Shown here piece by piece: positions 3,001 to 41,204 of a stretch of DNA of 64,000 bases. Origin of the DNA: Nageia nagi. Its lineage: Eukaryota > Plantae > Pinophyta. Positions within the stretch are counted from its first letter, which is position 1. The number at the start of each line of letters is the position of its first letter. The stretch covers positions 3,286,001 to 3,350,000 of the forward strand of contig JBITNC010000002.1 in assembly GCA_050084985.1 (NCBI GenBank), written 5' to 3'. Both the position numbers and the translations under genes were made by a program. The notes under the pieces were generated by a model that had not been told where the DNA came from, did not search any database, and saw only the letters and a program-made list of their open reading frames with translations.

Positions 3001-3539
3001 GAAAACATAACTTGTGATTAAGATGGGCAACTTAATGGTTGCATCCTTCTTTCTCCATACTCGTTGTTTCAAAAATAATAACTGTCTAGCAAATTCCATG
3101 AGGATGGGTCTATCACTGGCATATTTGGGCAGGAGCAAGGTTGTTCTTCGGAGCCATAAACCTTGATGTAAGTATGATTAGTATAATGCAGATAGAAGTC
3201 CGCATGTAAGCTAATGGCTTGAATATTCTCCTTTGATGTCCTTATAAATGGAGTACTCTCATCAATCGTTCCTCTCATAGAAATGCTTGAACTTATTGTG
3301 GTACAACCACTTCAGGTAGATTTGCCACACTGGAGTGCCTTTTTGACCCAAATATCTTTCATTTGCAAGCTCCCTTGATCTGAGCTTGCCATGCAACAAC
3401 AGGTACACAAGATAGGAGTTCATATAAAACCTCTTGGAAGAGCTGAAGTAGGCTAGCTGGTGGCGCAAGGTGTCATTGATAACCTTACTCCATCTGATGG
3501 CCCTCTTGGATTTGATCACTGCAATTAATTTGATGAACT

Positions 3540-6500
3540 TGTTGGGGGATTTTTCTTTCCTACCTTGCTAATGGGCAAATGAGCTTGCAAGGCTTGTGGG
3601 AAGACACCAACATCTAGGTGGTAGGGCGTGATCCCTACCCACTATGAGGACTGGTTACCTCAAAGGTCTCATGATGGGATGTGCGAGAGGTTGCTCAGGA
3701 GATTGGCTAGGATGTTTAAAGCTGTTTCCAACTCAAATATCATTTGTTAGTTAACCAAGGACTTGAAGGGTCCTTATCTCTAGCAAATAGTTGTTTCTCA
3801 AAAGAAAAGGAAAAATAGGTTGTGAAAGTTGTGCTAAAAAAAATGAAAAATAAGGAAAAATGTAGATTAGACCATGGTGTATGAATCGGGCACATGTGTA
3901 TATGGCTCCATCGACATGTACATAGGATTGGGATCTGCTTCTCTTGGGCTTGATTCAGGTTCCACGCACTCTACATCCACTCTACTAGCCAACAACACGA
4001 ATGGACTAGTAAAAGGAGCTTAAAGCAATGGCAAGGGTGGTAAAAGGTGGTTCATGGGTAGATCTTCGAGTGTGAAGTAAAGTTCCTAAGCTAAGCGTCA
4101 TAAGAGAGAGCCATCACAAAATGCACGTGTCTTGTTATGCAAACTATGAACTTATCACAAGTCAAGTTTTACTCAAATCACTTAGGGAGATATTCAAGTA
4201 CTCTCTCATCCACCTCAACAAGGTTTATGAGATGATCCAAGCAACTCAAATGAAACAAGATAGCAATAACATTCATCCACTCAAAGTGTATAAAAAACAT
4301 TCATAGTCCCATCCAAATGAAAGCATTCACCATTCAATTACTTGAAATCACACCACATTCACAAATGGAGCAAACTTGTTTAATTGGCAATAGAATTAAG
4401 TCTCTCACCAGTGCAAAAATGTCTAATCCCCTACAATTTAACCCAAATAGGCTATAAATAGTTTTTGTGGCAACCCAAAGTGTTGTCCTAACCCTAATGC
4501 AAATTACGAAAAAAATAGAAGTGGTCCAATTATAAAGTGCCACATGGCATTACAAGATTTCATCCAAACTTGTGGCAGCAAATCCTCATCCTTCACAAGT
4601 TTGGGAATTAAATAATAATATAATAAAGTATTTTAGCAAAAATAAATGTCATTTGCTTGGAAATAAAAATAAATTGGAAAATTGTGACTAAGATGATGGT
4701 GGGCCCAAGCCTGCAACACGTTCCTCGAAATCCTCATCTAGGAATTTCGTAGCATAAGAAAAGTTCCATCTTGTCCATCCATGTGTTTGTCCTCAAGATG
4801 TGCGCCCGGTTGAAATTGCCTGCCTGGTTGCTGGAAATTGCAGTGGGGGTTTTGGAGCCTTTCTAGGCCTAGCGCATGCCCATAAAAGACAAGATTTTGT
4901 CTTTTTGGAGCATGCGCCAGCCCTGGGGATGCATGCTCTCTGCTCGTTGGTGTTCTTGGCTGCCTTGCTCGTCCGATTGAACCTTGAAGCTCACCTTGGA
5001 ACCCGAACACGTCTATTTTTTGCTCTTTCTAGTGCCCAGATGTATCAATTTGATCATTGTGCTCAACTTGGACACTCCCAAAGCTTGGCACATGATTCAA
5101 AAAGACAGATTTTGTCTTTTGAAACCATGCACTCAATCTTCCAGCTCTCCTAGTTTGAGCTCATTGTCCAGAAAGAGAAGATTTTGTCTTTTTGTGGCAT
5201 GTGTTGGTTTGCAAATGCCCAAATTTGCTCAATTTTGGGTTCCTGCTTGTCAGACTTAGCCAAATTTTCGTGTTTTTATCATCCTAAAGGCTCTATGAGT
5301 TTGGCGCATGCCTCAAAAAGTCAAGATATTATCTTTTGAAACCATGCACCAGCCCCTCTAGTCATGTTGGAGTTGAGTTTGAGATTCGAAGTTCCATGCC
5401 TCAGTCAAATTTGCCTTGCAAACCAATTGGGCATGCCCTTGCCTTAGGAGCATGCTATAGAAAGTCAAGATTTTGTCTTTTGAAACGGTGCTCCCAACTC
5501 TCTTGTCATGCTAGCTTGAGCGCATGTTCCAGAAAGACAAGATTTTGTTTTTTTGAGGCATGCGTTGGGTTGCTCTTGCCTGTTTTGTCCTGTCTCGGGG
5601 CCTTAGCAAGTGGGACTTGGTCAATTTTTCACATTTTCCTAGAACTGGTGTCTTGTTGAGTTAGGAGCATGTCAAAAAGACAAGATTTTGCCTTTTGAAA
5701 CGATGCTCCCAACTCTCCTAAGCTAGGAGCATGCTACAAAAAGACAAAATTTTGTCTTTTGAAATGGTGCTCCCAACTCCTTGGGTCATGCTTGCGTTAG
5801 ATGCTGGTTTGAGGAATCCGTGCCTTAGCCAAATTTCCTCATGAGATCGGACTAGATGCCTCTTTGAGTCTGGTGCACGGTTCAAAAAGCCAAGATTTTG
5901 TCTTTTGAAATCATGTGCCAACCCCTCTAGTCCTATTGGAGCTGAGTTTGAGGTTCAAGGTTCCGTGCCTTAGTCAAATTTCACCTTTTTGATGAACTAG
6001 ATGCCTCTTAGTTCTTGGCGCATGCTCCCAAAAGACAAGATTTTTTCTTTTTGAGGCATGCGTCATCCTCCTATGTGCTTGAAATCCACTTTTTCATCTT
6101 CGAACTCAACCTATGTGGCCTTCTAGCTTGATCGCTTGCTCCCAAAAGACAAGATTTTGTCTTTTTAAGGCATGCGCCAACGTTGCTGTGCCTTGTTCTT
6201 GTCTTTTCCTTGCTCCGTTTCTATCCAGACTGCTCCTTGATTCAAGCGCATGATCCAGAAAGACAAGATTTTGTCTTTTTGAGGCATGTGCCAAGCCTCA
6301 AAGTGGCCAAGTTTGGCTTAACACTATTCCGAATTGACCTGAACTTCCCTAGCTCACCTAAGACCGACTTTTGGCTTTCTAGACTTAAGTCATATTTTTT
6401 TTTTTGGGAAATTTCAGATTTTGGCCCAACATGAATAAGATGAGGTGATTGATGAGACTAGGTTTAGGACAACTTGACATAATATCTAGGTCTTCCGAAA

Positions 6501-6603
6501 CACTTGAATTGTAGGAGACAAAAACATGACCCTTTGTGAAGATGAGTTAGTTAGGGTCCCAAAAATCTTAGGATTTTGGGGCATGTTGTGTTTAGTCACA
6601 ACA
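3540..6603 (-). mobile_element. Giant LTR-like unit, copy A' (ORF almost entirely deleted), nested in the ORF of copy A
   Basis: Termini TGTTGGGGGATTTTTCTTTCC (3540) and TGTTGTGTTTAGTCACAACA (6603). Host ORF resumes on both sides. Imperfect TSD (t)gaact/tgact. 3540-4790 is homologous to 37192-38440. Confidence 0.85.
4872..6292. repeat. Array of ~12 ~46-bp imperfect palindromes GCGCATG-N-AAAAGACAAGATTTTGTCTTTT-N-CATGCGC
   Basis: Copies start near 4872, 5088, 5158, 5303, 5448, 5519, 5665, 5726, 5872, 6017, 6131 and 6245, with spacers of ~15-170 bp. Confidence 0.92.
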
Positions 6604-7569
6604 TGACTCCTTCCTATATTTAGAGTCATTCTCCTGATCTGTGACTTTGGACAACAAAGTGATCAACTTAGTGATTGTAAGAAGGAACTCCTTCCTACGA
6701 GCACTAATCAATCTTTGACCTTGGATACCTTGGTAGTCTTCATACAACCATCTTTTGATGTAAATCTCCAGGCCGGGTAGTAGAATCATGAAATTTCTTT
6801 GAATTGGTTAGTGTATAATCATCTTCGTATTTTCTCCAACCAAAGGCTGCTTCAATTCCATTCGGAGAGAAGTCCATGATTACATTCGCTTCGGTGTCCA
6901 AGAGAACTCTTTTATCATATTTGCATCGCTTGGCTACCTCATAGCACAACTCAGGAAATGGAACAACAAAAGGCATAATAGTGGCATTGAACAATCCACA
7001 AGAATGGATTAGTTCATATGATAAGTCCTTGCTGATGGAGGCAGTGGAGGCTATAGTCTGGATGGGGTCAACATTTCCCTAGTTCGTGTCTCCAACAAAT
7101 ACGTATTACCCCTTGAATTTGGTTTCAGGAAGCTCTGGTTTTTCTCTCTCTTGAAATTGTACCCGATTCTCCCTCAAGGACCTTTCCATTTGGTCCCTTG
7201 TGACCGTCTTTCAAAAAGTTGTCCCTGGACTTTTCTGACCTTGGACGGGGGAGGCCTCACCTTAGAAGTCATCATAGAATTTTGAAAAATGTGCAGAAAC
7301 TTGCAGAAAAGAAACTGGAAAACTGGTTGGGAATACCCCAAAAATGACTAAATATCAAACTCGATGTGCTTCAAAGAATGCAGCAACAATGGCTAGACAT
7401 GCAGGTATGGGTTACAAAATGTCCTGCAGAAATGAACTAGGACTGCCCTCTTTTATAGGAGATGCATGGAGGGTTTGTGCATGGCATGATGCATGTTTGC
7501 CACTTGTCTTCTTGACTTCTCAACTTCCGGCTTCTTCCACACTTAGAAAATTTTGGCTCTCAGATCCTA

Positions 7570-9000
7570 GGGCGTACCAATTTGGATGTGTGCTTTTTCA
7601 CTATCTGGAAAGCATGCGAATGGGTTCTTGATGGCCAAAACACATCACATAGTCAATTCTAGGCCAACAATGTTTTATTTGGAAGGTTCAATTCATCATT
7701 TCACATTAGGGCGCATGGATTTGGATGTGTGCTAAAGCATGTGCTACAAAGCATGCGCCTCATACCTTCATGTAACAAAAAAGTGGACCCTAAGATCCAG
7801 CTTGTCCCTTAAAAATGATTGATTGGTTGCATAGGCACATCCTCAATCCCTTATTCCTCCTTGGTGCACCAATTTTGATGAGTCCTTAAGCATGTTCCAG
7901 AAATAGTGCGATTGGGGGGGCTTAATGCAAAATGAAATGAAGTGGTAAAATGACAAAAGGGGTGACTTAATATATAGTCTTCAAACTTGCCACATGTCAT
8001 CCTCTGGTTGGTTGAAGAAAAGGTTAAATGATGGAGCCAAAATTATGGGCGCATTGTTTTGAGGACATGCAAAAGCATGTACCAAAATGCATGCGCTAGC
8101 CACATTGTGTTCTCCAAAAGGACTTAGTCACTTTTCATCGTACTTGAAAGCTTTTATATCTTGGTTGCACCTTTTGAAAGGGGTGCAAAAGCATGTGCCA
8201 GAAAACATGCGCCTAGCTCTTCTCCACTTGGATTTTATACTTAAACAAATTTGACCTTGGGCCAGGATGTTTGGAGACGGGCACACCAATTTAGGTGAGT
8301 TCCTAAGCACACACCAAAAATCATGCACACGGCGTGTGGCACACCTTCCAATGCAAAGGATTAGAAAATTAATGAAAATGACTTAAAATTAATGATCCAG
8401 AACAGGGTGCACGTTTTAAGGGACATGATTTCGTGACTTGGCTTTGCATCGGGCTCCAAATTCAACCAAACAATTTGAATACTGGGGTGAACCTTCCATT
8501 TATAGGCTTGCTAAGGGTGGACAAGTGTCCTGATGTGATAGGTGCAAACAAAGGTCCAATGCATGTGAACACACTTGTCAAGCTTGGGTCCAACACTTAG
8601 CCGAATTTTATACCTCAAAGTTGGGCGCACCGATTTGGGGACATGCAAAAGCATGTACCTTAAAACGTGCGCTTGGCCTTCCTTTTTTCGCACAACTTAA
8701 AAATTTTCTAAGTATAGAGACTTCTCAATGATCTTTGTCGCATTGTTTTGGGGACTTGCAAAAAGCATGTCCCTCAAAACATGTGCTTAGGCACAAAATG
8801 CAAATTTTCCTTCAAAATGACTAGAATGATCCTCAAAATGGAATGTAATGGAGGGGATGCAATCTTTTATAGTATGATAGATATGAAAAATGCAGTATTA
8901 AGACTGAAAATGCAAGACTAACTTCGAAATATGCAGCATAAAGGAAGGCGCACGTTTCAGGGTACATGCAAAAGCATGTCCCTCAAAACATGCGCATAGG
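7570..9000. repeat. Array of ~50-bp palindromes in copy A (core ACATGC-AAAA-GCATGT, outer GGCGCA/TGCGCC arms)
   Basis: For example 8946-8998 aggcgcacgtttcagggtacatgcaaaagcatgtccctcaaaacatgcgcat. Similar units near 7570, 7710, 7862, 8048, 8165, 8280, 8625 and 8737. Confidence 0.85.
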
Positions 9001-9176
9001 CACAATGACACTTTTTCGACTTGTTTTCATCATGACAGTGCAGACCTTGTTATGTTTCCTCTTTCTAATTTAAGATGCATGCATTTCCTTGAAAATTTTC
9101 TTCCATGTCTTTATGCTCGAGTTCTTGAGAGTCCTCAAAAGTGCAAATTTTTTGGGGGTGTTGTGCAGGCACAACA

Positions 9177-18793: not shown

Positions 18794-18983
18794 ATATGGA
18801 AGTATGGACGAATTGAAAAATGTTGTGAGATGTTTCCATGATGTTGGAATTAAAGTGCTTGGAGATGTTGTCTTGAATCATCGTTGTGCTCAATACCAAA
18901 ATCACAATGGGATTTGGAATATGTTTGGTGGGCGTTTGAACTGGGATGACCGAGCCATTGTTTGTGATGATCCACATTTTCAG
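18794..18983 (+). CDS. AMY3: Plastid alpha-amylase 3, internal exon (GH13 region I)
   Basis: cttcag|A acceptor, CAG|gtatga donor. Translates (R)YGSMDELK...LGDVVLNHRCA...GGRLNWDDRAIVCDDPHFQ. Confidence 0.96.
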
Positions 18984-19219: not shown

Positions 19220-20459
19220 GTTTCTTTTTGTCCTCTTTGCAAACTCTTCCTCGTGCTTTCTTTTATCAAAGATTTATTGAATTAGCAAAGGAATTATGTT
19301 TTTAACCAGTGCATTACTCTGCACAAAAGCAAACAAAAGAATAATGCATATATATATCCTGCCAGAGATCAGGTTAGTGAAAAGAGTTCAAGATTTATTT
19401 AATCTTGTTAATGAAAAATTGAAATAAAAGACTTGCTTTATTACATTCCTTAATTAAGTATAAATACAAGAGATGTACTCACCTCAAGTATACAAATAGA
19501 TAAAGGCATTATACTCACCTCATGTACCTAAAAATAACATATATCTATAATTAATCACTATCCTAGAATTAACCACTAACCTATGATTAACCACCATGTA
19601 CTTGTTGTGCCTGCACAACACCCCCCAAATTTTTTGCATTTTCTAGGATCCTCATACAATTGAAAAGCATGACATGAAAATTTCTAAGTCAAATGCATGA
19701 GTCTCAAGCAAGAATGAGGAGAGAAGTGGCAAAAATTGCATATTTTGATGAAAACAAGTCCAAAACCCATTATTTCTCCTAGGCACATGTTTTTTAGTTA
19801 GTGCTTTTGCACTCACCAAAAATGGTGCGCCTAGCCTTATTTTGCACTTACCATGACCAACTCTGCATTTTTGTGCTTAAAATCATGCATCTTTCATGTC
19901 TGCTTCACTCCCCATCATTAAAAACATGGCATTCTTCTCATTCCATATCATTCTATGAACATTCTGGTCATTTTTGAGAAGTTTTAGCACTTAGCATTTT
20001 TGGACTCTGTGTAATGAAAAAGCACTCTTAAAATTGTGCGCCTAAGGGAATGGAACATTTTAGTACTTAGCATTTTTGGTAAAATAGCTTCAACCCATGT
20101 TTTATGGGGAGTGCAAAAGCACTCACACAAAATGGTGTGCCTACCTTTCATGAGCATAAAATTTGACTAAGTGTTGAAAATTTGGAGCATTCATTGTGGG
20201 GTAAACAAGTGTCTCACCATGCATTGGGCCTTCATTTGCATCTATCAACATGTGACACCTGTACATTTGGAGACGCAAGCTATAAAAGGGGGTGCTGTGC
20301 CACCCCCCAAAATTTTTTCATTTTGAGGACCCTCGAAATAAAAGAACAATGCATGGAAGTAACGTTTGTCTAAGGGAATGTATATATTTTGGTCTAGATT
20401 TAGGAAACATGTTAAACCTGTACATTCATGGTCAAGTCAAGTCAGAAGTATGCATTTTT

Positions 20460-21855
20460 ACTTAGTCACATGTTTTGAGGGATGTGCCTTTGCACACCTC
20501 CCAAACGGTGCAACCAGCCTCATGCTGCATTTTCATACTCATTACTTGCATTTTCGGTTTCAAAATTGCACTTTTAGGGTCCCTCATACTGTAGAAGTTC
20601 GTTTCTCCCTCATTGCATTTCATGTTTAAGGTCATTTTGGCCGGAATTCAAGGCAAAATGTTTTCAATCATAGGCATGTTTTTGAATGAATGCTTTTGCA
20701 CCCACCCAAAATGGTGCGACCAGGTTGGAGCCTTATACTTGGCATTTTTTTTGGCAAAACTTGTCGCATGTTTTCAAGTGAGTGCTTTTGCACCCATCCA
20801 AATCCATGCGACCAAGGAGGAAGAGATTTGTACTTAGCTATTTCGGAACCTACAAGGCCTGTCACATGCTTTCAAGTGAGTGCTTTTGCATCCATCCAAA
20901 TCCATGTGACCAGGAGAAAAGGGGGACTTAGCCATTTTGAGGCAATCAAGGCTAGTCGTATCCATTCAAGTGAGTGCTTTTGCACCCAACTCAAACCGTG
21001 CGACTATATTCATGAGGTGAAAATTGGCTAAGTGTGGGGTCCAGATTGTTGCCAAGTGGAAACACATGCATTCGATCCCCTCTTGCACCTATCATATGAT
21101 GACACCTGACCTACCCGGAAGGCTTGAAAAGGAAAGTCAGCCTTAGTCATTCTATTTGCAAAATTGTTTGGAGCATTGCGTGGAGCCAAGGGAGAAAAAG
21201 CACGTCCTCCAAAACATGTGACCTATGTTAGACCTGCATTTTTTAAGTCATTTTTGGAATTTCTAGTCTCAGGAGGTGTGCCAGAACCTAGGCGCAAGGA
21301 TTAAGGTGCATGTTTTTGCACCCTTTAAAAACGGTGCGACTAGGAATTGAGCTTCATTGTTGACTTGAAATTTGGCTAAGTATCCAAGACCCTAGTCACA
21401 TGCTTTTGCACCCCTTTAAAACCATGCGCCGCTATTTTTGCTCCACCATTTGATCCTTAGCTTGACCAACCCAAAGGTGACACATGGCAGCATAGAAGGT
21501 TATAAATATCACGCTACCCCTTAGTCATTCTTACCATTACATCTAAGATTTTTCACCCTTCCCCCAGTCGCACCATTTCTAGCGCATGCTTTTGCACTCA
21601 TCTAAAACAATGCGCTAGGGAGAAATAAGGAGTCTAGAGGGCCGTTGTGCATTCAAATAGCTTGTTTTTGGCTAAAGCATTCAATAAAGCCCCAAGGTCA
21701 TGGTTCATGCTTTTTGACATGCTTTTGCACTCATCCAGATTCATGCGCCCAAGTGTGAGGTGAAGAATTATACTATGAAATTTGACTAAGTGACCCAAGG
21801 CCCAGTCGCATGTTTTTCAAGCAGTGCTCAAGCACTCATCCAAAACTGTGCGCCC
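20460..21855. repeat. Array of ~50-bp palindromes in B2 (core GAGTGC-TTTT-GCAC(T/C)C, outer GTCGCATG/CATGCGAC arms)
   Basis: For example 20763-20812 gtcgcatgttttcaagtgagtgcttttgcacccatccaaatccatgcgac. About a dozen related units. Confidence 0.88.
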
Positions 21856-21861
21856 AGAATT

Positions 21862-24830
21862 GCAAGGTCAAAGGTTGATCAACGCTAGAAGAGAGGAGTT
21901 CCTGCCTATTGTGGCCAAGCTGATCACTCTCTTATCTAAGGGTACTGGTTAGGAGAATGATACTAAGTATAGGAGGGAGTTCATGGGCTTCATGCAGTTA
22001 TCAGCTTGAGGAGAGCTATTCGATAGGCTGGGGTAATTAGTGATGCCCTACACCACCAGTTAGCTTATTTTGGCTCGAAGAGATTTTATATGAACCCTAT
22101 CTTTTGTACCTGTTACTGCATGGCAAGGTTAGATCCATAGAGCTATTCGATGAAAGATATCTAGGACAAAAGAGCACCCCCGTGTGGCAAGCTTATCCAA
22201 AGTGGTGGTACCAGAACAAGTTCCAGCATTTTTGTTAGAGAAATGACTACTGGGAGGATGATATCTACAAAGATATCAAAGGGGAGTCCATGGTTAAGAG
22301 GATTTTTGATGCAGCCGTCCAAGCTATCAGCATACATGCAAATTTCTTCCTGCAGAACGCTGACCATACATTCATCAGAGTCTATGGCTCAGAGGAACAA
22401 CCCCTACTCTTGCCAAGATATGCTGGTGATAGGCTCGTACTGATTGAGTTTGCTAGGCAACTCTTGTTCCTGAAAGAGAGTTTGGAAGAAGAAGAACGCG
22501 ACCATTAACTTGCCTATTTCAATAGCAAGATATGTGTTTCAAACGTGGGTTGAATCAGCTAGTATGAAGGAGCTGTAGCAGTATGCCTTTTCCAAGTAGG
22601 CAACTGCAAGAAACTATGATCCTAGGGGCATAATTGCACATTTCTATAGCAATGCATTCCACAAACCTATTGCGTTTTTGCATCAGTCTTTTGGGAGTGT
22701 GGAGAAGTACCGAAATGTGCAGGATGAGGAGATTGCAAAGATAGATGCTCTTCTGAGCAATAAAAAGGCTCCCCTTCAGGAAGAAAAACCACCTTAGAGA
22801 CCTCGAACGACTATGTCTAGATCTAAGGAGGTCCCTCTCAGGATCAGGTCGTCTCCTTCTCTTGCTCATACTGCATCTCTACCAGTCAAAATGTCTTTGC
22901 TTCCTGTTGGAAAGAGGCAAGAGGCTATGAGGGAATACATTTTGGACCCTAGCAAGCGTAGTGTAGTAATGGTTGATCTTAAGGAGGTTGGCTATCGCGC
23001 TATGCCCTTGGATGTGCTGGATAATGTAGTAGGTGAGGCTTGTGCTAGTGATTCACCCACATAAGCGGTTCCTTTTACGCTCACCCATTCTCTTGGATGT
23101 AGAGAGAAAGTCCCTTCTTTGCAACTAAGCTCTAGTTCCAGTTCTGAACGTTGCACTTCCTCTTCCGATAAAGAGATTGATGAAGAGCTTGACCATACAG
23201 TAGAAGACTTCAGAGAAGAATCGAAAAACTGTGGTGGAAGAGAAGAAGAAGAGGAATATGATGATGACGATGCTTCCATTGTTCTTGAGCAAGAAGATGT
23301 AGCCATAGGTGCCTCTGCACCTGATGAGACGGAGATTGAAACTCTCCCAGATGACAATGAGATAGTGGATGTTGGAACATATGATGATAACGTACAGATC
23401 GTTGGAGAAAAGTGTGCTACAGAGGTGGGTGCCTCCAAACCCTCTCTTGCCGAGAATAGGAAGAACTCCCCTTCCTCTTCGCACAAATTCTCCACAAAGA
23501 GGACGAGCCATGAGAGATCTCCTTAGCCACGCAAAGGTATATCTATAGGCGGTGATGGGGAAGATGAAGAGGATGAAGGAGAAACTGAGGGTCAAAAGAA
23601 GAAGAGAAGGCAAGAAGAGCACCAAGGCAAGGAGATTACCATAATTCAGACCACTCTAGCGAAAGAGATCAAGAAGATCAACAAAGGATGATTGTTGGTT
23701 CCGAGATTTCCCCCCCAGCCAACAATTGAGCATCCAAATCTTAACCAAGATGCTTGCCTTAGAGCCCTCAGCATGAGTACAAACTCATGATGAAGATATA
23801 GACCAGGATTTGCACTTCGAAGATGAGGAAGTGGAGCTTTCGAATGGTTAGAAGATTCGAAGGGTTGACACGTTTGTCTCCACCTTCCAAAAGGAACTCT
23901 CCATCAGCCATTGCTATTCAAAGGAGAAACATCCTCAGAGAGCTAAAGACTGTGTCATCGAGACATTCAAGATGCCCATGAAGCTAGGATTGACAACTCG
24001 TAAACATATAGTTACTCAAGATGCTGTAGTCATGGAGCAAGAGGGGTATGAAGCCAAGAAGGAGGTGAAGAGGTTGAAAAAGGAACTCACGGCTAGCAGG
24101 ACAATCATCAAGGAGTTCCAGAAGGTCAGTACCACCCACTTAGATCTGTAGAAGCAAACCTCCTTCCATGAGGATGGGAATTGATGAAGGAGTAGCTGAA
24201 GAAGGAAATGATGGAGGCTATTGAGAGATTGTCTTCTCGAATTTACAAGCTCCTTGCTGAAGGTGTGGAAATCAGGGACCTTAAGTCGCAGATCTCAACA
24301 CACCTAAGCACGTTGAATAGCCATCTTCCCAACGTCTCCTATATGCAGCATATTTACGTTGACAATCCTGAGAAGTTAGTCTTCTACAAGTTCACATACC
24401 ATCATGATTGGTTGAACCACGCACTTGAAAAGTGCAATGCGGTCCTGAAGATCAGAATCCCCTTGAGAAAGGAGGTTGAGCAACAAATGTGTGAATATGC
24501 CTATCAGCTCAAGTTCCAAGGGGAGGACAATAGTGTGAGAAAGGAGGCGGTATTCGCAGAGGCTCAGAACCTGATATAGGAGCATCTTGACATCGATGAC
24601 CTCAGTTTGCTAAAGGTAGGGCATCCTATCATCCATGACAGATGGATGGTCATCTGGAGGCACCAGATGCAGGCTACATCGAAGAAGATAAAGGACTACG
24701 TTTGACATAGTGGCAACACCGTTGGCATGATTTTCAGGGGTGTACGGAATACTGTGGCGTTCTTGGAGGAGACCATTGAGTTGTATGGTCACACCAATTA
24801 GGAGTGGAACTCCGCTAGTATCAGATTAGA
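21862..24830 (+). pseudogene. Degenerate accessory ORF of B2 (N-terminus deleted)
   Basis: HTFIRVYGSEEQPLLLPRYAGDRLVLIEFARQL, acidic linker QLSSSSSSE..., C-terminal helical part at 24208-24579. Collinear with the ORF of copy A. Confidence 0.78.
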
Positions 24831-27800
24831 TTTGGCCTAGGTCTTATCCACCTGCAGATTCTGTTTGCGGTATCTTTGCTTTTGTTTAGATGCATATTTG
24901 ATGGTGGTTGTTATGTCAGACTCTATTTCACTCGATTTGATTGGTGTAGGGATGAGTTTTTGCTGCCACCACATCGAATTTGTTAGATTCACTTATGACT
25001 CTGACCGGTGCAGGGATGAGGTTTTCCTCCCTCCGGTTCAGATGTCAGACTTTTTCATTGCATATCTGATTTACTTTTGAGTAGCTTAGAGGTAGATTAA
25101 ATGCATATAAGTTGTGGCATTTATATTTTGTCAGATTTTTAAGTGCCACTTGCATCGATTCATGTTAGCAATCTGATTTTGTATTGGTATGTGTGTTGCA
25201 TGTGTGCACACCATATCAGATTTGATGCCTTTAGGGAAACACTTTTAGTGGCCTATTTATACCCCATCCTGACCATTTAGAAGGGGATTTTGCATTCGGG
25301 ACTTTTGCACTTGGAATATTACATGATATTACGCATTTTGGCATATGTGAGACTCTGCACTTAATAGAAATATTGCATATTGAGGATCTTGCATTTTGGG
25401 ATGCTGGCTACAAACTTTCATGTGTAAGAATTTCTTAGTTGTTGCATCTGTTATAACTGAGGTTTACTGTATTTCATATGAATGCAAGGGTTTTTCTACA
25501 TATGTTTGGTTTGTTGCATCTTTAAATTTTTACATTCTATTGCATAGAGGTTCGTTGCATAAGAGGTTCGTTGCATGTTCATCATTGAATATCATTATAA
25601 ATGTATTTCTTTTGAGGAATGAGATTATAAAGTTAATATTGTGAAGGATATCATTTGTGGGATCATGCCTATATGAATAACTTTCCCCTTGGAGTTGTAT
25701 ATTGAATATTCATTGAAGTGGTTTGAGTTTATCTTTGCATGGTTTGCACGTAAGTGAATGTATTTTGAGGCTCATAGCTTGTCTTTATACCATTTGGTTA
25801 GGTTCTTGTGCTCACACCCTCACCTCATGTATGCCTTCCCACTGAGTCATCCACCAAGACCCTACAACTTCTTGCTCTCGTCTGGTAGTGATTTGAGTGC
25901 ATATTACTTGCCCAGCTTGATAGTGAGTCCATTGACCTTAATGAATTTGAAGATGACCTGCCGAGACAGTGCATCACTAGTGATACCTTCATAAGTTCAT
26001 GCTTCCTTGTATTCCTTTGCATTTATCCCTATGTTTGTCCCTAAATTTGTAATATTTCTTCGCTTTCATTGACATTTGTAGTCTTTCCTTATTATGGAAA
26101 AGAATTCCGGCATTGTATTTCCCTTGTATACGGTTAACAACATGCATGTCTAACTATTGTGCCTTCAAGACCATATTCCATGTGAGCGCTTGGGGTAACC
26201 AGTCCTTTCAGGTGGAAACAAGTAACGTTGTTTACTCTAAGTCTTGTGCATGTTTTGGACTAGGAAAGAAAAACATTCCAACAGGGGGTCATTCATTTTA
26301 TGTGCATTTTGGTCAAATAACTCCATTGTGTGTTATGTTTTGCATGTATTAAGGAAAGACACTACTTGAAATTGGTAGGCCTCACTTCATAAGATCATTT
26401 TGAACCATTTTTTTGGAAATTCACTTTACTGGCACCATTTAAGGCACCATGAAAGCTAGGCGCATGTTTATCAAGGGGTGAAAAAGCACCCATCTAAATT
26501 GGTGCGCTAGCCTCTTGGATGTCCAGATCCGGGACCATGGATTTTGACTAAGTGTGAAATCTTGCATCTTGGACCAGGCGCATGTTTTCTAAGGAGTGCT
26601 AAAGCACTCATCTATTTTGGTGTGCCTAATCTAAGATGTAAAATCCATGTTAAATTTTTTTAAGTGCTCCTTAATCCCAGGTGCAAGGATTTGGGGGAGT
26701 GCAAAAGCACTCATTGAAAATGGTGCACCCATAACCAAAGGGTCATTTTTGTGAAAGTTTGAAATTGGTTAAGTCTTGAAACACAAAGAGCCCAGGTGCA
26801 TGGATCCAAAGGGTTGAAAAAGGACTCGCCCAAAAAGTTGCACCCCTCAATTATTGCACATACATTGGACCAAGTTTTTGACTATTCCCAAGGTGACATG
26901 TGGTATAACCCAAAATTATAAATATTAGATCACCCCTTGCATTTCACTACAATTCATTTTGCTTAAGACTTCCAAGTAGCACTATTTCCAGACATTGAAA
27001 AGGACTACCACAAAATCGTGCATCCAGGAGGAATAAGGATTTTTGAGATCATTTGACATCATTTTAAGCCTTTTTTCTTGAAAGATGAGGGTAAGCTTGA
27101 TCAAGCAAAGCATTTTCTGAAAATTACTTCATTTTTTCTTGCATGCCTACCCAACTAACCTAGGCGTATGATTTCTACATAGTTCAAAAGGACTCATCCT
27201 AAGCGGTGCACCAAGACCTAGAGTGGGAAAATTTGACTAAGTATTACAATTTCAAGTTCATTTCATTCCCTTTTCCTTCATTCATTATAAATGATAAAAA
27301 TTTAAGGTGTAAGGTTTTTGTGTAGTGAAAAGGGATCCATCCAAAATGGTGTGCCCTAGCATGGAGTAATGATCAAACCATCCCAAATGAGAAATTTTGT
27401 TCAAAGAGGGTAAAAATTGATTGAAGTGATGTGTTCCTCTAGCAAGTACTTAGGTGCATTATTTTCTCAATGTGAAAAAGCACCCTTCTAGATTGGTGCG
27501 GTATAGGAAAACTGACCTAAAAATTGACTAAATGGTGGATAGCCAGGAGTGAAGATATCAAGTTGACAAGTGGCACCTATGCATTGTGCCAAGCATATAC
27601 GCTCCATGCATTCTCCATAAAAGTGGTTTCAATCCACTTTTTGTAGGACGTTTCAACTATCCCAACCTAGATGTCTGGTCAACTCCCACTGCCACAAGGA
27701 CACTTCCAGAACTGTGCGTCTAGCCCAACTTGGCCCTTTTGAGACATTTTGATCAAATTTCAGACCTGTTCTCACTCATTTGCTAGGAGGATTTATCAGA

Positions 27801-29345
27801 TGAAATTATTAACTCTTGCAGATTATTCATTTCTTCAATGATGCTGTTTGCTATTCCTTTTCTTGACTTATACTACGAGGTAGCTAAACATTGTAAATTG
27901 GACAAGAGAAATCTCTTGGATATTGAAGCTAATGTCATCATGAATTTCTCTCCTGAAGGTATTGAAAATGCTTTCTGTTGGAGAAGATATGGAGATGAGT
28001 ACACTGAAGCAACCTCTGATGAGTTTCATGATAGCACAACCAAAACATGAGATTATATCCAGTTTGGTTGTACACAGATTGCCAGGGCATTCAAGGCCAA
28101 AGGTTGTTTAGTGCTTGTAAAGAAGAGTTCATCCCTACAGTGTCTATGTTGATTACTTTATTGTTTAGAGCATAGATTTAAAAAGGGAAAAACGAATCCG
28201 GAAAAAATCGCATCTTGGAGAATATTCGGATTTTTGCCAGACAATCGCCATTTTTTTGTCAGATATTCAGATGTTTTATGTGTTTGAGAGATATTTTTTT
28301 GTTTTTTGCAAATTCAAAGAAACATTTCCAAATGTCTTTCGAAATTTATGTACTCACTATGTTAGTATGTAGCTTAAGCACTATGCAGTATTTTGATACA
28401 AAAAACATGTTGTCCTCATGCAAAATCCCAAATAATTCTCCATGCAAATATTAGCCAATTAATAAGCAATAAACATCAAATTATGCTCCTAGGCATGCCA
28501 TGAACTGATCTAGGGCATCAAACATGTACAAAAATGTGCCAACAATCCCAATGACTCACTCTACTAGCCAAATTACACCTCAATCGCCCAATGTCACACT
28601 CAAGGAAGCAAGATTACATCAAACACACCAAAATATCAGACAAGAAATGGGAGATCAAGTGTGCCAATGCTTCATTAAGAGAGAAATGATGAGTACAAGC
28701 AATATCAGGCCCCCAAGGACTCAATGTTGGCTTCCAAGGAGCCAAGTAGGGCACATTGATGTGCAAATATGATCACTGATGTAGATATGTTGTAGAACAA
28801 CCACACTCTACTAGATCTGTGGACGCCTCACTAAAGGGCTTCCTCATAGGTTAGCTCTTGCCAAAGAGAACAAGTGCGATTCCGGAATACCACCGGATGG
28901 ATTCGAAGATGTTGACTGCTATGAACACCTCAGGGTATGGTAACCTCACAGCACGAAGATCTAATACAGTTTGATTCTATTTTCTTAATTGAGTATCAAG
29001 GACACTAATGTCAAGGATTCCAAAAGTGAAGTTTCTTATTTTAACTGGAACATTGTTCTCTATGTTGAATGAACCTAATTTATTATTTTTACTTGCATCA
29101 TTCCTAGGTTTTCTGATATTCTTTTCTTAAATATAATTGTCACAAAGCTTGAGATTACCTTCATATACTATTGCTTCCATGATTATTTGTTTCAGGAGAA
29201 ATTAATTTTGCTTTTTTATTATGAGAGAGTTTGCCTACAATATATGTCATCATTCTCGTGCTTTTGATTTTTAATAATTTATTACATTTTCTTTACTTTT
29301 TTGACTATACATTTTTTAATGATCGCTTTTACTACATGAATGCAG

Positions 29346-32165: not shown

Positions 32166-35100
32166 TGTTGGTGAGGAAATCCTTCCTACCCTATAGGGCC
32201 TCTAGTAGGTAGGCTTAGCAAAAGAGAAAAGAGTCTCAACGACACCTATGAGTGAGATAGCGTTACCTATCTTTGCTTGAAAAGGGCTGACTACCCCAAG
32301 GTTTATGTGACTTCGATGTTTTAAGGCCTTTCGACTTTAAAAGAGGTCTCGCGTCTCTGAGCAATGATATGTTATTAGCTCTAGTGAACTTGTGGGTTAA
32401 CTCAAATAAGAGGAGGTGGGCATATTAACTCACAATTTTAAATGGACTTATTCAGGGCTTGCATCGATGGAAAGTTGCAGGGTTTTAAAAATGGGAAAAC
32501 AATTAAAATGAAAGTTGAGAATGATCTAAAGGAACTTGATGCACGTATCAACTATTTGCTAGTGTTATAGGGTCCTGAAGATCTATAATCCGAATTTATT
32601 GAGAAAGTTCATTCATTCATCAAATATAGAAGCACACAACATGAACACTCAAAGTACAACTATAAATGAGCCAAAAGGAGAACATGAGCTTCAAATATAG
32701 AAACAAACAACATAAATGACCAAATTACAACTATAAGTGAGCCAAGTGCAGATCACTAAACTTCAGATATCACGAGAATAATTCACCATCACACATTTAT
32801 GAATGAATGTTTTTACTCAAATGTCATAGAAAATAGATATGTTCCAGAATATAAACATTTAGTATGCAAGCTGTGGAAATAATAACTATTCATAAACTTC
32901 GAAAGATGATCATTCAGCTTTCCCAAAAAACTTGTAGTTTTCAAAGGAAATGAGCTTAAGCTAATGAATAGTTATGAAAAGACAACATCTCATAAAACAT
33001 CCACAAATCCAAAAGGAACAAACAACATTACTTGCATTAACATCACAAAAACTCTAGAACAAGATTGTTGAATAGTATAAAAGCTCTAGAGCAAGTTTCT
33101 CTCTAATCCATTCTGCTTCAAAATGACCCTGTGGAGGGTACTTATAGCACAAATGTTTGACAACAATAAATGTATGTGTTGCCCTAATACAACTACCAAC
33201 ATTAAATAAAGTGTTACCCTAATGCGGCTACAGTAGCCCTATGATGGTTGAAGAGCCAAGAAAGTTCTAACAACAATAAATGAATTGACATAAACCTAAT
33301 TGAAATATAAAGTATTACATATATTGAGATTTGAACATGTGGGAGAAAAAACTCATCATCACAGTTCAAATAAAACAACTTTTTAAAACATCACCCCTAT
33401 TCATGTATTTAACAATAAAATAATTCAATAGTCACTCCTTCATAAACTGGTTCCATTCATTATTTGAAATATTGCAACTTTTGTAGTTGAGATTAATGAA
33501 CACCACTTGTTTCAGAAGTTCTTATTACAACACACTCATCACCATGCCGATCCTTGGACGGTATTCATCAATCATATTGGAAGTAAGCCCCATTTGGTAT
33601 CTTCAAATGGTTGATGTGCTATCATGTTGGATTATCCTCACTGTCTTGATGAGGTTCAATTCTCTAATCTAGAGGAGCTCTTTGATCCAGTTCTTTGTTT
33701 TTGTAGTCACCTCTTCGTTGCTTTTAGCATTGCCATCTTATTTAAGAAACTGTATCCTCACTTGGTAGGCATCTATATGTTGCCAAACTTCCCGTTTCAA
33801 TTCCGCCCTTACATTGATCGAATATTAACATTTGTCAATCGTGTATTGTAGCCAATCATATTGGACAAGAATTTAGTGTAGTAGTTCATCTTTTTAGGTT
33901 CATCTCCTATGGACATCTTTACGGCCTTCTCCAATTTTGTCTCCACTTGGAATTATTCATGGTTTGTTTCATTCCCCTCACTTCTTGGATCTTGAAAAAC
34001 GACCTGATTTGGAATTTTTTTTTTTTTCTTTTTTTTTGAACTTGAAACTTGAATTTCGCTATCACAATATAGGTTGCTTACTTCTTTCTTGAAATCTCAA
34101 TGTCCTAGAATCATGCGACCTATCAAATGTCACTTCTTTTGGTGTGCCAACTTAATATTAGTGCTCTGAAATACTCACAAACTAGGATGCTTATTTTATT
34201 TTCTTTGCTTTTGCAACTTTTGAGAAATGTGTGACCAAAGATGCCTGGCAAACTGTGTGATACAAGTAAATTCTAGGATATGCAATGTGAGGTTTTCTTT
34301 GAATTTATAAGTCTTAGTGACATGCGGTAGTGTGCATGCTCCAGATAGGCAAGATCTAGACATTTGGCAGGAGGATGACAACAAATCAACAATCTAGAAG
34401 CGGTTGCATGGTTTTAGGAGCTTGATTTTGCAATGTTATAGAAATGTGCGACCTAGGCATCCTTGGAGAAGTGTGCGACAACCTTTAAGACTTGGAAAAT
34501 TTGTGCAAATGCAATATGGTCCATTTCTTTTCCACTCCTTTTTGCTTTGTTACTGGCCCATCTTTGAGTTTGGGTTGTTTCTACTTGGTCGCTTATTTTT
34601 AGTCCCTTGGATTAGCATAAATCTGAAACCATGCGACCAACCTTGGTTTTGAAAATGGACCTTTATCCTTGTTGCTGGCCAATCTTTGAGTTTGGGTGTG
34701 TTTCTACTTGGTCACTTATTTTTAGTCCATTGGATTAGCATAAATCTGAAATTGTGCGACCAACCTTGGTTTTGAAAATGGACCTCTATCCTTGTGCAAA
34801 TGAAGCAAGGGAACTACTATAATTTAGGTCGCATGCTTTGAATTGCAATGTCTTGAAATCAAGCGACCGCCCTATATATTAGATCGCATGTTCTTTGGCA
34901 CTTGATTCTTGTAAAGTCTTGAAGCTGTGCGACCAATCTATTCCTTCAAAACCGAGCGACCAACTTGGATTGTAGGCCCTGCAAACAAAGAGTGAAATGG
35001 TGATGCCTTTATAGGCTTGAGAGGTTGCTGAATCTTGATCGCATATTCTTGTAAACTTGAATTGGCAATGCTTCAAAATTGAGAGACCAATTCATATTCT

Positions 35101-36004
35101 CAAAACTGAGCAATAAACTTTAAACTACTTTCATGCAATGAAGATGTTATATAAGTTGAAAGCCCCCTTTGATCCAAGTCGCTTGTTTTAGACAATGTCT
35201 TGGTCGCACGTTTTGATCTCCTTGCATTTAGATTATCTTGAAATCATGCAACCAAGTATACTTAGCCAAATTTTGAATGTGAATGATGTTTCAATGTTTC
35301 ACTATAGTTTAATAAACATATGGAGGCACGTGGCACCTTTCCATTAGTTGTTATGATCTTCAAAAAGTGGTCGCATGATTTGGAGGACTTGGGTTGGTGG
35401 CATGGTTTGGAGGTCTTGCATTTGCATCATTAGGAAACTGTGCGACCAACTTTGGGACTTAGAGTTTTATGCCAAATTAAGGTCTACTTACTTTTTTATC
35501 ACTTTCAGAGAACACCTGTCAGTATTGCGCTGGCTAAAAGCAATAACAAAGTAGGTCACACACTTTTGGAAACTTGAGTAGGTTGCACATTTTGGAGGCA
35601 TTGCCTTTGGCATGAAAGTGAAACCATGCAACCAACTTGGAACTTACGAAATTTTCTACTACAGTGAAACCTTCATATCTTTTATAGCATTTGATCGACA
35701 CATGGTCTTCATTGATTGATTGGGACCAACTTGCAATAGGAGGTCGCTTGTTTTGAGGTCCTTGAATGAGGTCGTACGTTTTGGAAAACATGCTTTTTTA
35801 ATGACTTGGAATAATGCGACCTAACCTTTTTAGCTCCAAAATGTTTCAGAGTCCCTTTTCTTTAAATTATTTGCCTTCATTCTTCAAAACTTCTCTTTCA
35901 AGATTCTCACTCTTCCATCTTCGCCAAAGATGTGACTCCTTTTTTGCAAAAGTAGGGTCCTCAAAATTTTCAAAAAATTTGGGGTGTGTTTTGCAGGTAC
36001 AAAA
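32166..36004 (-). mobile_element. Giant LTR-like unit, copy C (internally deleted, 3839 bp), inserted in the hAT transposase
   Basis: TGTTGGTGAGGAAAT at 32166, degenerate hairpin GGGGTGTGTTTTGCAGGTACAAAA ending 36004, TSD GATTA/GATTC. GGTCGCATG...CATGCGACC array at 34110-35825. Confidence 0.8.
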
Positions 36005-37191: not shown

Positions 37192-39870
37192 TGTTGGGGG
37201 CTTTTTCTTTCCTACCTTACTAATAGGCGACTGAGTTTGCAAGGCTTGTAGAAAGACACCAACACCTAAGTGATAGGGCATGACCCCTACCCTCTATGAG
37301 GACTGATTACCTCAAAGGTTTCATGATGGATGTGCAAGAGGTTGCTCAGGTGACTGGCCGAGATGTTTAAAGCTATCTCCAACTCAAATACTATTTGTTA
37401 ACCAAGGACTCAAAGGGTCCTTATCTCCTGAAAGCGTTTGTTTCTCAAAGAAAAAAATAAAAGGGTAGGTTGCGAAAGCCACACAAAAAAAATGAAAAAT
37501 AAAAGAAAAGATTGAATAGACAATGATATGTGAATTCAACATGAAAGCTCAATGGTCTCACCGACTAGTACAGGATTCAAGAATCAACTCTCATGGCTTG
37601 TCATGGGTTCCATGCACTTTGGATCTAACTTGCTAGTTAACAACACGAATGACCTAACAAGAGGAGCTTGAAGCTAAGGTGATGGAGATAGATGAGGAAA
37701 CGTGGGTAGACCCTGGACAAGGGAGTGAAGTTCCTATGTTAAGCGACATATGGGAGCCATCTCAAGGTGTACAAGTCTATAATGCAAACTATGAATTATA
37801 ATACAACCATACACTTCTTGCAATGCTTATGAAAATGTTCAAACACTCTTTTGTCCACCTTAAATAAGATTTATAAAATGCACCAAGTATTCAAGACAAC
37901 ATAAGGTAATAACATACATTTACATTCATAGTTCCAAATGAGAGCATTCACTATTCAATTACTTGGAATATATCACATTCACTATTCAATTACTTGGAAT
38001 ATATCACATTCACAAATTGAGAGAACTTGCAAGCTTGAAAGTATTAGGTAAGTTGTCCAATTTGCAAAAATCTCTAATCCCCTACAAGTGGGCCCAAATA
38101 GGCTATAAATAGTTTTTTCGGCAACCCTAAATGTTGCCTTAACCCTAATTTCAAAATGAAAGAAAATACAAATGGACAAACCACAAATTGCCACATGGCA
38201 TTACAAAATGTCTTCCAAGCTTGTGGGAGCAAATCCTCATCCATCACAAGCTTGGGAATTAAATAATCAATATAATAAAAATATTTTATCAAAATAAGTG
38301 TCTATTCTTGAAAACAAAACAACAAATTATGTAAATTGTGACTAAGATGAATGTGTGCCCAAAGCCTCAACGCATCCCTCGAAATCCTCATCCAACAATT
38401 TGGCAATGAATTCCAATCCATGCAGCATATCTGATAGCTTTGGCCCATTCCCAACAACACAATGTCCAACTTATTCAATCACCCTCTGCATGTCGTTCTT
38501 CCAGGCATAAGCTTTCAACAAGTGTCTCAGGTGACTTCCAGTCTGATAAGTGTTGACGTTATTGGTCATGATCAAGCTATGGAGGAAGTGTCTAACTTCT
38601 ACCACTACTAGGTCCTTATCCCTAATGGTGGCATCATTATCTATGAATTTGACCTGAAAATCCATCTGTTCAAGGCTGGTGTTAGCCTTGTCGTTGAGTG
38701 CTTCGACATGCTTCTGCACCTCCTTGAAACGACTAGCTATCTAATTGACAACACCCAAGTAGAACCAATAATTCTTGCAAAACTTCACATTCTCAACTGT
38801 CCGATCCTATCTCATCTCAAATTTTATTATCATTGGCTTTCGGGAGTCTAGAACACTGTGAAGGTTGGCTCTCTCCACCACAATGTCCTTTAACTTTTGT
38901 TCCTCAAGTGTGACCCTCTGTAATGCACCAATGAATTGCTGAATTACCTAGTTCTTTCGAGGGTCTATCTTCTTCTTCATCGAGCTCCTTAGAGGTTTCT
39001 GTCATCCATGATTGTGAAGTCCTATTTAGTTGGGCTCTTCTCTGTATTGTCTTTGAGGCTGGTCCCTTACCCTTCTTTGTGGATGGTTCTGAAGTAGCGG
39101 GATTTTGGACTACCTTCACTATCTCAAAAGATCTGCCTTCTTGCTATGTACTTAGGATGTTGTCATGTTGTGTTGAATTCACTTACTGTTCACCTTCTGA
39201 ATCTCCTACTTCTCCTTCGTCATGATTGTCATCGGGTTCATACCTGGGACTAAAGGATGAGGACCCAGATGGCGGAACAATGGGTGATGGTCATGCAACT
39301 TCTCTAGGTGGTCTGGATGGTGGGGATGGATCCTTCTTTCTGTTCCTGACACACCTCACCATCTTGTCAGTGGCCACACGTTCTAGCTCTCTCACGTCAT
39401 GCTCATCAATGGTGTTCTGGACTTGGACTACCTATTCCACTAGATTGTTGCCATGTATTGATGCATATTGTTCAACTGGTCCTTTAATTGTGGGTGGAAA
39501 CTGAGTGACCCTGGAGGTGGAGTCTTGTGGTCTTCTTCCCTTCTGCTGTGATAATCTTTTGTCGATGGTGGCTTCAACAAGCTGTTGTTGATCATGGGCA
39601 TCTTGTGCATTTTGTCATGAATCTTCCTCATTTCTACCTCATTGCTCACATTCCGGAAAGTTTATTCTTCTCTAAGTGGTTTATGTTCATATACTTTCGT
39701 CCTTTCCTTCATGTAAAATTGGTTAATCCTATGGTCGTGATCATAATGATTGGCGACATGCATCTTCTTGAAGTTAAATCTCTCCAGCTCATCCTTCATG
39801 GTGTCAACGTCTGCCCAAGTCTTGCACTGATATTCACCCACTCTGATCGGCATCTTGTGTTCTCCTGTTT
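37192..39870 (-). mobile_element. Giant LTR-like unit, copy C' (5'-truncated; same subfamily as A', retains the C-terminal half of the ORF)
   Basis: TGTTGGGGGCTTTTTCTTTCCTACC at 37192. 37192-38440 is collinear with 3540-4790. ORF remnants at 38471-38719, 38904-39119 and 39440-39853 (PIRVGEYQC..NHYDHD). Right boundary approximate. Confidence 0.8.
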
Positions 39871-41204
39871 TGTGAGATTGCTTTATTGTTTTGTTTTTAA
39901 GTTTCTTCTACAATTACTAGAACCAAATTTGCTAAAATTTTATTGAAAAATAATAGATCCTAACATCCATTAACTTCAGGAAGAGTAGATCTCCTAAAGA
40001 AGAAACCAAAAAGTTCAACAAAGTTCTTCCCCTTATATTGGTCCAGCTATCATTGAGAATGCTGCACACCTTCTTTCTTCAAATCTTTTTCTATTTCTCT
40101 ATAGCATTCCTAATGTTTGTGTTAGCCTTCTCAAGCAAAGGTCCTCTCAACTAATGGAAAGATGGTGCATTGAACCTAAAACCAAAAACTGCAATTGTGT
40201 TAACCATGTAGCTCCAATATGATGAGTTCTCTATATTAAAGGGAATTTCATAGTAATACCATGAATTACCAATTGCCTTTTTGGCTTCTTTAAATTTATC
40301 ATTGTTCCATGATGATTCAAGTGTGGTTTGGCCACTACGAGGGGTGAAGAAATCACACCTCACTGCACAACTAATGGCTGTAGAAATTGAAATGCTAAGT
40401 GGTTGCCTAAGCTTGTTGGTTTGTTCTGCATTGGCATTGGTATTGCCTTCTTCGTGGGTGGGAGGAAACCTTGGGGTTGGAGGTGGAGATGGGATAGATG
40501 GAGGTTTGGCCATTTGTCTTTATGTCCTTTTCTTTTCCTTCCTTTCTTTTTTGTTGGAAGTTGTTCAAGTAGGCATTAATTTGCCTTCGCATATGAACAT
40601 CCATCTAACATTTTGTCAAGTGATTCTCGCCAAATGAAACTTCATCTTTTATGGGCCTCCACTAACAACTTCCCCATAATAATTGGCAATAAATATTTTG
40701 GCCTGTTTTTCCAGTTTCTTTGCAATTAGCCCAAACAGGGTCCCTCTTTTCCCCTTCTAAACTCATACTTGCAGCTACAAAAAAAGCAATCCACAATGGG
40801 CAAGCAATGAGCATTAGTAGAAAACTTATCCACTAGAAAACAATAGACAAACTAGAAAGAAAACAATGGAAAAATAAATGGAGAAATGCCTAACAAAACT
40901 CAAAAACCAGTGGAAAAATGTTTAGGGACTTACTTTAGTGTGTTGAAATCTTGGTGAAAAATTAAAGAAATGATGAAAAATGTTGTTTTTCCCCTTTAGC
41001 TCACCTCCTCTTAGCTCCTGGCTGAATGCAAAAGTGAACAATGAGTAGTTTTTGTGTTTTTAAGTTGATTGCTATTCGTTTGGGATTGACAACGATTTTT
41101 TTGTATGATATTGTATTAATCCCGATTTTCGAGATTGATTAATCACCAATTAATCCTGCAAAATAGCCACATCAAAAAAATAAAAACTCATCTGATCTGG
41201 TCTA

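Follow-up and report, generated by a model that had tools for sequence, protein, structure and literature searches.

Among plant transposable elements, the closest described counterparts of the locus reported here are the VANDALs and several groups of retroelements. VANDALs are DNA transposons of the Mutator-like type found in eudicots; their tandem repeats contain amplified motifs of 8-9 bp, to which VANC proteins bind (PMC5735166, PMC10398659). The motifs differ between families, the target repeats vary in unit number, and the string 'palindrom' occurs 0 times in the paper that describes them (PMC5735166). VANC and MAIN/plant mobile domain (PMD) proteins have been reported to be structural homologues (PMC13547354), and a VANC21 structure is mentioned in two meeting reports (PMC12859917, PMC8756742). 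PMDs are also encoded by Gypsy elements (PMC5418596, PMC4408406): gymnosperm Tat lineage III has an antisense PMD open reading frame (ORF), and lineages IV-V have a PMD together with a coiled coil (PMC4408406, PMC5418596, PMC8616336), the anti-silencing role of transposon PMD proteins being a matter of speculation in these sources (PMC5418596, PMC8616336, PMC4408406). Retand elements carry an antisense accessory ORF with predicted DNA binding beside family-specific tandem arrays, both lying internally between long terminal repeats (LTRs) of 315-1,194 bp, and are reported from eudicots and monocots only (PMC11963269), and the LTRs of Ogre elements reach 1.9-6.5 kb (PMC6431247). The combination of an accessory ORF and an array is, in other words, already known in plant retroelements. 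Here we describe a 64,000-nucleotide stretch of the genome of Nageia nagi (Pinophyta; assembly GCA_050084985.1, contig JBITNC010000002.1, positions 3,286,001 to 3,350,000), hereafter the window, which holds seven related repeat copies (labelled A, A', B1, B2, C, D and E) with arrays of palindromic units, or dyads, and an accessory ORF.

Our reading is that a protein of the PMD/VANC fold encoded by the element would bind the dyads in its own promoter region and counter methylation or activate transcription of the family, and we give it a probability of roughly 0.45. The further proposal of a retrotransposon family with a complete LTR-internal anti-silencing circuit, made up of a VANC-fold gene, its own promoter and a palindromic target array, is tentative and on balance appears unlikely. 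The features of copies B1 and D on which the argument turns are as follows.

19603..26283, minus strand (strand of the TATA box): B1, a 6.7-kb TGTTG...CAACA unit delimited by its termini, likely a solo LTR
19603..19620: terminal self-complementary 18-bp end TGTTGTG-n4-CACAACA with the adjacent G/C run, common to A, A', D and C (decayed)
19782..21854, no strand: B1 dyad array, 12 units of 50 bp found with a position matrix
19782, 20092, 20465, 20671, 20763, 20861, 20955, 21291, 21381, 21567, 21700, 21805: starts of the B1 units
20763..21004, plus strand: recent tandem triplication of a ~94-bp unit-plus-linker (TRF period 94, 2.5 copies)
21479..21507, plus strand (ORF strand): G-box-like element and TATA from a motif scan, putative internal ORF promoter
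21836..24800, plus strand: remnant of the B1 accessory ORF, broken by stops and frameshifts and lacking the first ~170 profile positions
25255..25262, minus strand: LTR-type TATA box of B1, 1,021 bp from the 26283 end and antisense to the ORF
47460..50716, minus strand: D accessory ORF, about 1,085 codons with 8 in-frame stops in the main frame and 2 frameshifts
49744..50583, minus strand: N-terminal domain of the D ORF (AlphaFold2 model, residues 1-280), best structural match VANC21 (9LNK)

A short motif is amplified as tandem repeats in the non-coding DNA of the element itself. Each unit in A and B consists of an 8-bp arm G(G/T)CGCA(TG/CC), 34 nt and the complementary 8-bp arm, and its interior reads GCAY-N12-RTGC-N4-GCAY-N12-RTGC, so that a unit has four GCA quarter-sites; across 24 units, 79/96 of these are intact. 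The position matrix found 12 units in B1, 8 in A, 7 in B2 and 6 in C, at 17-67 bits against a best score of 12.0 in 30 shuffled windows; this first matrix was trained on the same arrays and the seed scores are therefore inflated. With a second matrix, A' yielded 12 units, each 48 bp long, and C yielded 9. In B1, unit 21381 has a shortened left half and unit 21700 is slightly shortened, unit 21567 being of full length. Arm pairs stand above dinucleotide shuffles in B1, A, A', B2 and C (0/200 shuffles reached the count in each), with no such excess in D or in the host sequence. An earlier reading of this DNA from its letters alone (the sequence-only reading) had noticed a palindrome array at 19780..21855, and this array, with relatives in A, A', B2, C and D, is real. 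The number of units differs among family copies, in which the joints skip or repeat 57-198 bp. The other copies in the window are listed here.

1..9176, plus strand, ORF on minus: A, extending beyond the left window edge, with 8 dyad units at 7571-8996
3540..6603, plus strand: A', a 3.06-kb TGTTG...CAACA unit without ORF, with 12 dyad units of 48 bp
26284..28177, plus strand: B2, a truncated relative abutting B1, with 7 dyad units and the first ~130 codons of the ORF
32166..36004, plus strand: C, a 3.8-kb unit with 9 dyad units
37192..39890, plus strand: E, with a TGTTGG end 74% identical to A' over 1.2 kb and the 3' part of the ORF, the array being lost
46199..54178, plus strand: D, an 8.0-kb unit with 4 arm pairs in ~360-bp repeats at 51900-53270

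All these copies are dead and CG-decayed. The ORF of A, on the minus strand, is interrupted by A', and C retains only a remnant of the C-terminal domain. B2 directly abuts the end of B1 (26283/26284) without a terminus of its own, a junction that either a nested insertion or a deletion could have produced. As the sequence-only reading had it, an array stands upstream of the ORF in each of A, B1, B2, D and C (A' has no ORF), and outer arms of the form G(G/T)CGCA are shared by A, A', B, C and D; the example which that reading gave from C, 34827-34868, is a shortened unit of 42 bp. The spacer between the arms is 32 nt in A', 34 nt in A/B and about 60 nt in D, where the four arm pairs span ~76 bp, lack the inner dyad and have degraded left arms in 2/4 cases. 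The units of C measure 50 bp as in A/B and have another inner core, and the inner palindrome AAAAGACAA..TTGTCTTTT that had been claimed for A' is present and unrelated to the inner sequence of A/B.

Two further kinds of repeat accompany the dyads. A second recurring motif, AAATTTGRCTAAG, follows many of them (20159, 21020, 21368, 21778 and relatives), and its 12 matches with at most one mismatch all fall within the arrays of A, A', B1, B2, C and D. In D, a ~40-bp repeat family rich in GAGCCCG lies at 53388-53900, between the terminus and the arm repeats.

The sequence-only reading had argued that both inner arms changed together between relatives, and this did not hold. The exact stem ACATGC-TTTT-GCATGT occurs in 3/8 A units and GAGTGC-TTTT-GCACYC in 4/19 B1/B2 units, while 6/27 units (3 in A, 3 in B1) are asymmetric, with a left arm of A type and a right arm of B type; the mixed units of A and B1 lie in mutually alignable stretches. 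Over all 27 A/B units the association of the inner arms is not significant (3/9/1/14, Fisher p=0.29). Covariation in 25 A/B units (24 units plus 21567) equals that of shuffled alignments (0.150 vs 0.150; 266/500 shuffles), and neither is it above shuffle in A' (72/500; 10 of the 12 units, the two others being out of register). Compensatory stem evolution was rejected on these grounds. Symmetry with differing sequence is maintained across the deep lineages A/B, C and A', for which separate inverted duplications could be the source, and to this extent the earlier claim stands; it fails within A/B. Five columns are invariant in 25/25 units, among them the pairs A6/T45 and T21/A30, and since the symmetry resides in invariant positions the units look like a double-stranded protein site rather than a hairpin. 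A double-stranded DNA site would be expected to keep its spacing within a lineage and an unchanging A/T in its quarter-sites, and to show neither covariation nor strand bias, all of which is the case here; judged by their sequence the dyads are likely fixed-spacing binding sites of this kind.

The CG to TG/CA decay noted by the sequence-only reading is present, with TG or CA at the CG position in 19/48 arms, and 18/33 array CpGs fall inside units, which make up 27% of the array (the CG census and the strand-bias counts refer to the 24-unit set, without 21381, 21567 and 21700). It is not specific to the arrays: the CpG observed/expected ratio is 0.34 across the window and 0.23 in a host exon, so that CpG depletion is general.

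The accessory ORF of D comprises a ~420-residue N-terminal part, an acidic linker, a likely coiled coil and a helical C-terminal domain, the last of which is also found in A, B1, C and weakly in E. Between A and B1 the proportions of nonsynonymous and synonymous differences are 0.16 (pN) and 0.64 (pS) over 805 codons, giving a dN/dS of about 0.13, a rough value since pS is near saturation; third positions differ by 0.38-0.46 and first and second positions by 0.11-0.22. This pattern shows that the ORF was formerly under purifying selection. Amino-acid identity is 62-67% among A, B1 and B2, 30-32% for C and 21-37% for D. In the non-coding tail that follows the ORF (24800-25291 vs 240-720), A and B1 differ by 18% as against 64% at synonymous sites, which points to strong constraint on this tail as well. 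The ORF also has relatives elsewhere: a representative search gave 117 unnamed clusters, mostly fragments, the 10 that were checked being nameless singletons, and a profile search gave 20 matches, 18 unnamed and 2 labelled hypothetical. A word-based homolog search with D residues 15-430 found none, nor any among longer proteins, and viral and metagenome contigs gave no match when scanned with the protein or the dyad pattern.

Modelled with its relatives by AlphaFold2, the N-terminal part reached a predicted local distance difference test score (pLDDT) of 78.8 and a predicted template modelling score (pTM) of 0.73, and residues 1-280 alone 78.5 and 0.75. For both models the VANC21-DNA structure 9LNK was at the top of 48,161 chains in full structural alignment and the sole one with Z>=5 (Z 5.8, root-mean-square deviation 4.9, 226 and 214 residues aligned, 8% and 6% identity), values in a range that possibly marks a common arrangement. 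The runner-up chains scored Z 3.4 and 3.5 over 66-68 residues and the next rows cover 58-68, while the 9LNK alignment spans 214/280 residues of the short model. The modest score gains weight because the match had been named beforehand and most of the domain is covered. We regard it as weak support for the prediction that the N-terminal domain folds like VANC21/PMD. An ESM Atlas search gave no usable match for a natural homolog. The VANC-like pair of protein and motif put forward by the sequence-only reading is in this way favoured by purifying selection and by the weak model match, having lost its argument from compensatory arms.

The element that carries gene and array has TGTTGG at one end; its opposite end consists of a G-run and then TGTTGTG-n-CACAACA, which in C is decayed. 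TG...CA is found at both ends of A', B1 and D, the right end of C being decayed to CAAAA, and the five-base flanks match at 3/5 positions in A', 4/5 in C, 4/5 in D and 1/5 in B1. LTRs are recognised by TG...CA ends, about 5-bp duplications and a TATA box, here 0.9-1.0 kb inside; equivalents of the B1 TATA lie 911-912 bp inside the TGTTGG end in A' and E, and in D none was found by the pattern used. The TATA boxes of A', E and B1 are directed toward the end of the ORF, which would thus be antisense to the LTR promoter. On the ORF strand, B1 has, besides the module at 21479..21507, which we take to contain a G-box, a further TATA at 20280. Six G-box-like plus TATA modules occur in the window, all in ORF sense (A, B1, B2, D), compared with 0.59 in shuffles (maximum 3). 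Contigs of four public runs from three samples cover B1 at 2,316-9,978 contigs per run in all 30 bins, so that a single high-copy family comprises the array, the ORF and the tail; flanks past 26283 are heterogeneous in 12 contigs (agreement 0.46). On the simplest reading, a unit of the B1 type is likely a solo LTR of 6.7-8 kb with an antisense gene, its own promoter and an array, and A' and C are derivatives that have lost all or most of the ORF. We infer the LTR identity, since gag-pol, the primer binding site (PBS) and the polypurine tract (PPT) were not seen in the window. The palindromic end of 18-20 bp, which starts with TG, finishes with CA and stands after a G-run, recurs at 19603-19620, 9159-9176, 6584-6603 and 54161-54178, and could be an integrase attachment end usable in either direction.

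The working of such an element can be proposed as follows. The accessory gene would sit inside what is likely a giant LTR of a retrotransposon, with the array in the promoter region of the gene, and a G-box/TATA promoter would drive the ORF antisense to the LTR promoter. The protein may oligomerise and bind the four-part dyad as a dimer or tetramer; once bound it would relieve silencing or transactivate, keeping its own family expressed, and tandem amplification of the units could tune the dose. With gene and array in both LTRs of a full element, solo LTRs would retain the whole circuit.

Compared with VANDAL/VANC, the family is alike in its element-encoded accessory protein, amplified non-coding motif repeats, variable unit number and weak predicted VANC21 fold match, and unlike in its TG...CA unit, its 50-bp four-part dyad, its outer arms kept across lineages and its lack of sequence similarity; whereas VANC motifs, such as those of VANC21 and VANC6, turn over fast, the outer arms here are common to lineages with divergent ORFs. 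A VANDAL-type DNA transposon, the setting implied by the sequence-only reading, was rejected in view of the TG...CA ends, the ~5-bp flank matches and the lack of any transposase family in the scanned ORF frames, the unit being likely a solo LTR, and the family is plausibly a retrotransposon analogue of VANDAL/VANC rather than a member of it. Like the extra ORFs of Tat elements, the ORF is antisense to the element promoter and has an N-terminal domain followed by a likely coiled coil; unlike these, which by description lie at the 3' or 5' element end, it is placed between one TG and one CA end, and in contrast to Tat lineage III it has no Pfam PMD match, the fold link being indirect via VANC21. 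Membership in Retand was rejected, as the ORF has no match to PF04195 (TRP28) and the units measure 3.1-8.0 kb against 0.3-1.2 kb for reported Retand LTRs. Very long LTRs and extra ORFs are shared with Ogre, where the extra ORFs are internal, whereas here the ORF lies within the units, which are up to 8.0 kb long. In a literature search outside which most subscription papers and Repbase reports lay, no LTR-internal ORF with a palindrome array was found, nor were the four-part dyad and the VANC21 fold match.

Several observations weigh against binding of the dyads by the element's own protein. A', with the most regular array, has no ORF and would need the protein in trans, and D and A/B, whose proteins are 21-37% identical, have almost identical outer arms. 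That motif class roughly tracks ORF lineage (A, B1 and B2 having one motif, C and D another inner sequence or spacing) speaks for such binding, though with only 4 classes and as expected from descent alone. Between A and B1 the units are not conserved beyond their surroundings (identity 0.56-0.76 vs 0.66-0.70 in linkers), and the depth of family contigs, up to 4,690 on units and 35-114 on linkers, has peaks inflated by paralogous units mapping to a single place. No significant Pfam family was found in the D, A and B1 frames and none common to 118 aligned members, sequence-profile searches of the PDB gave no match (9LNK being absent at E<=10), and Foldseek gave none for either model; the two models come from one query and are not independent, and a shared fold is no proof of DNA binding. 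MAIN and MAIL1 PMDs are themselves silencing factors. As to the retroelement setting, B1 has no matching target-site duplication, and the absence of gag-pol, PBS and PPT holds beside all 7 copies.

The main rival is that the array is an LTR enhancer made of host-factor sites (E2F/DREAM-like, or B3/bZIP dimers), the ORF protein acting elsewhere, on chromatin, in the particle or on RNA; it owes this rank to the outer arms, conserved in all lineages whatever the divergence of the ORF. We hold it possible, if doubtful. We take the outer arm to resemble cell-cycle and seed promoter elements, and the arm is followed after 4 nt by TTT(G/T)A(A/G) 14 times, compared with 0.83 in shuffles, a layout which we presume, from consensus and spacing, to be like the CDE/CHR of animals. 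G-box-like plus TATA modules and CATGCAT motifs also lie within the same arrays. Yet there is one occurrence of the exact GGCGC-N4-TTTGAA, the arrays contain a single match to the E2F pattern TTTSSCGS, one factor poorly explains the lineage-specific spacers (32, 34 and about 60 nt) and the inner palindromes, and the top match to VANC21 would become a coincidence.

It is improbable that the dyads are by-products of half-unit inverted duplication followed by tandem amplification, under little selection. Half-units are inverted repeats in their own right (GCAY-N12-RTGC), which together with the lack of covariation and the equal identity of units and linkers between A and B1 speaks for such an origin. 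Against little selection, the arms persist despite the near-saturated synonymous sites between A and B1, the spacing is fixed while linkers vary, and the units are conserved islands among family contigs, in which alignments stop at unit borders and 11/12 variant rows fall in the linker and 1/12 in the unit.

Little likelihood is likewise given to the units being parts of a non-autonomous or accessory DNA transposon with 5-bp terminal repeats, the array then serving as a subterminal field for a TnpA-like regulator. Transposon-encoded regulators do work in this manner (bioRxiv 10.64898/2026.08.24.746577), the ends form a 5-bp inverted repeat, and the missing gag-pol, PBS and PPT would be accounted for; the LTR hallmarks given above, the position of the array at one end only and the failure to match any transposase fold, or any transposase family in the scanned ORF frames, argue the other way. 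That the units form hairpins, as RNA or as single-stranded DNA, which would serve in export, packaging or dimerisation, is very improbable and largely refuted, for although the best-strand minimum free energy falls to -32 kcal/mol in some units and A' units are 79% paired, only 64% of cells pair in A/B, there is no covariation, G-U does not exceed A-C on the ORF strand (52 vs 57; in A' 16 vs 20) and the central T4 is found in both orientations without strand bias, so that an RNA hairpin function was rejected and the RNA export considered by the sequence-only reading is disfavoured.

The surroundings of the copies are those of a long plant gene. An alpha-amylase gene, which we take to be plastid AMY3-like, occupies 12072-45700 on the plus strand, its exons separated by long, repeat-filled introns within which B1, B2, C and E all lie; introns of this size and content would by themselves suggest a seed plant with a large genome, likely a gymnosperm. 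Two domains were placed by Pfam.

17654: Ig-like domain of the host gene
18795-18983: alpha-amylase domain PF00128, host exon

An AT-rich piece with 18-bp tandem repeats (19360-19602) adjoins B1 and resembles, by eye, a truncated short LTR on the minus strand. A second element, possibly a non-autonomous LTR element, has direct repeats at 56073-57632 and 61015-62251 (91-96% identical) around a 3.4-kb interior, whose three long frames gave no Pfam match; related pieces are found at 15296-16244 and 30127-31370. At 41624-43557 one repeat occurs twice in inverted orientation (81% identity over 684 bp, gap ~590 bp). Reverse-transcriptase remnants under the Pfam cut-off (E 0.003-0.005) at 14577-14900 and 16229-16561 likely represent one long interspersed nuclear element (LINE) split through repeat insertion, and a Cys/His tail of the LINE-like type lies at 9074-9388. 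No tRNA genes were found in the search.

The extra ORFs of plant Ty3/gypsy elements have hitherto had no assigned function, and this family offers both halves of a test, a once-selected ORF modelled onto VANC21 and a 50-bp candidate site with invariant positions. If our reading is true, sequence-specific anti-silencing would reach from DNA transposons to retrotransposons, which would provide a mechanism for the persistence of retroelements in large, heavily methylated genomes. On the more tentative proposal of a complete circuit inside the LTR, each solo LTR would be a self-protecting unit able to act in trans, and the VANC/PMD strategy would be older than the VANDALs and would operate in the retroelements that inflate giant plant genomes.

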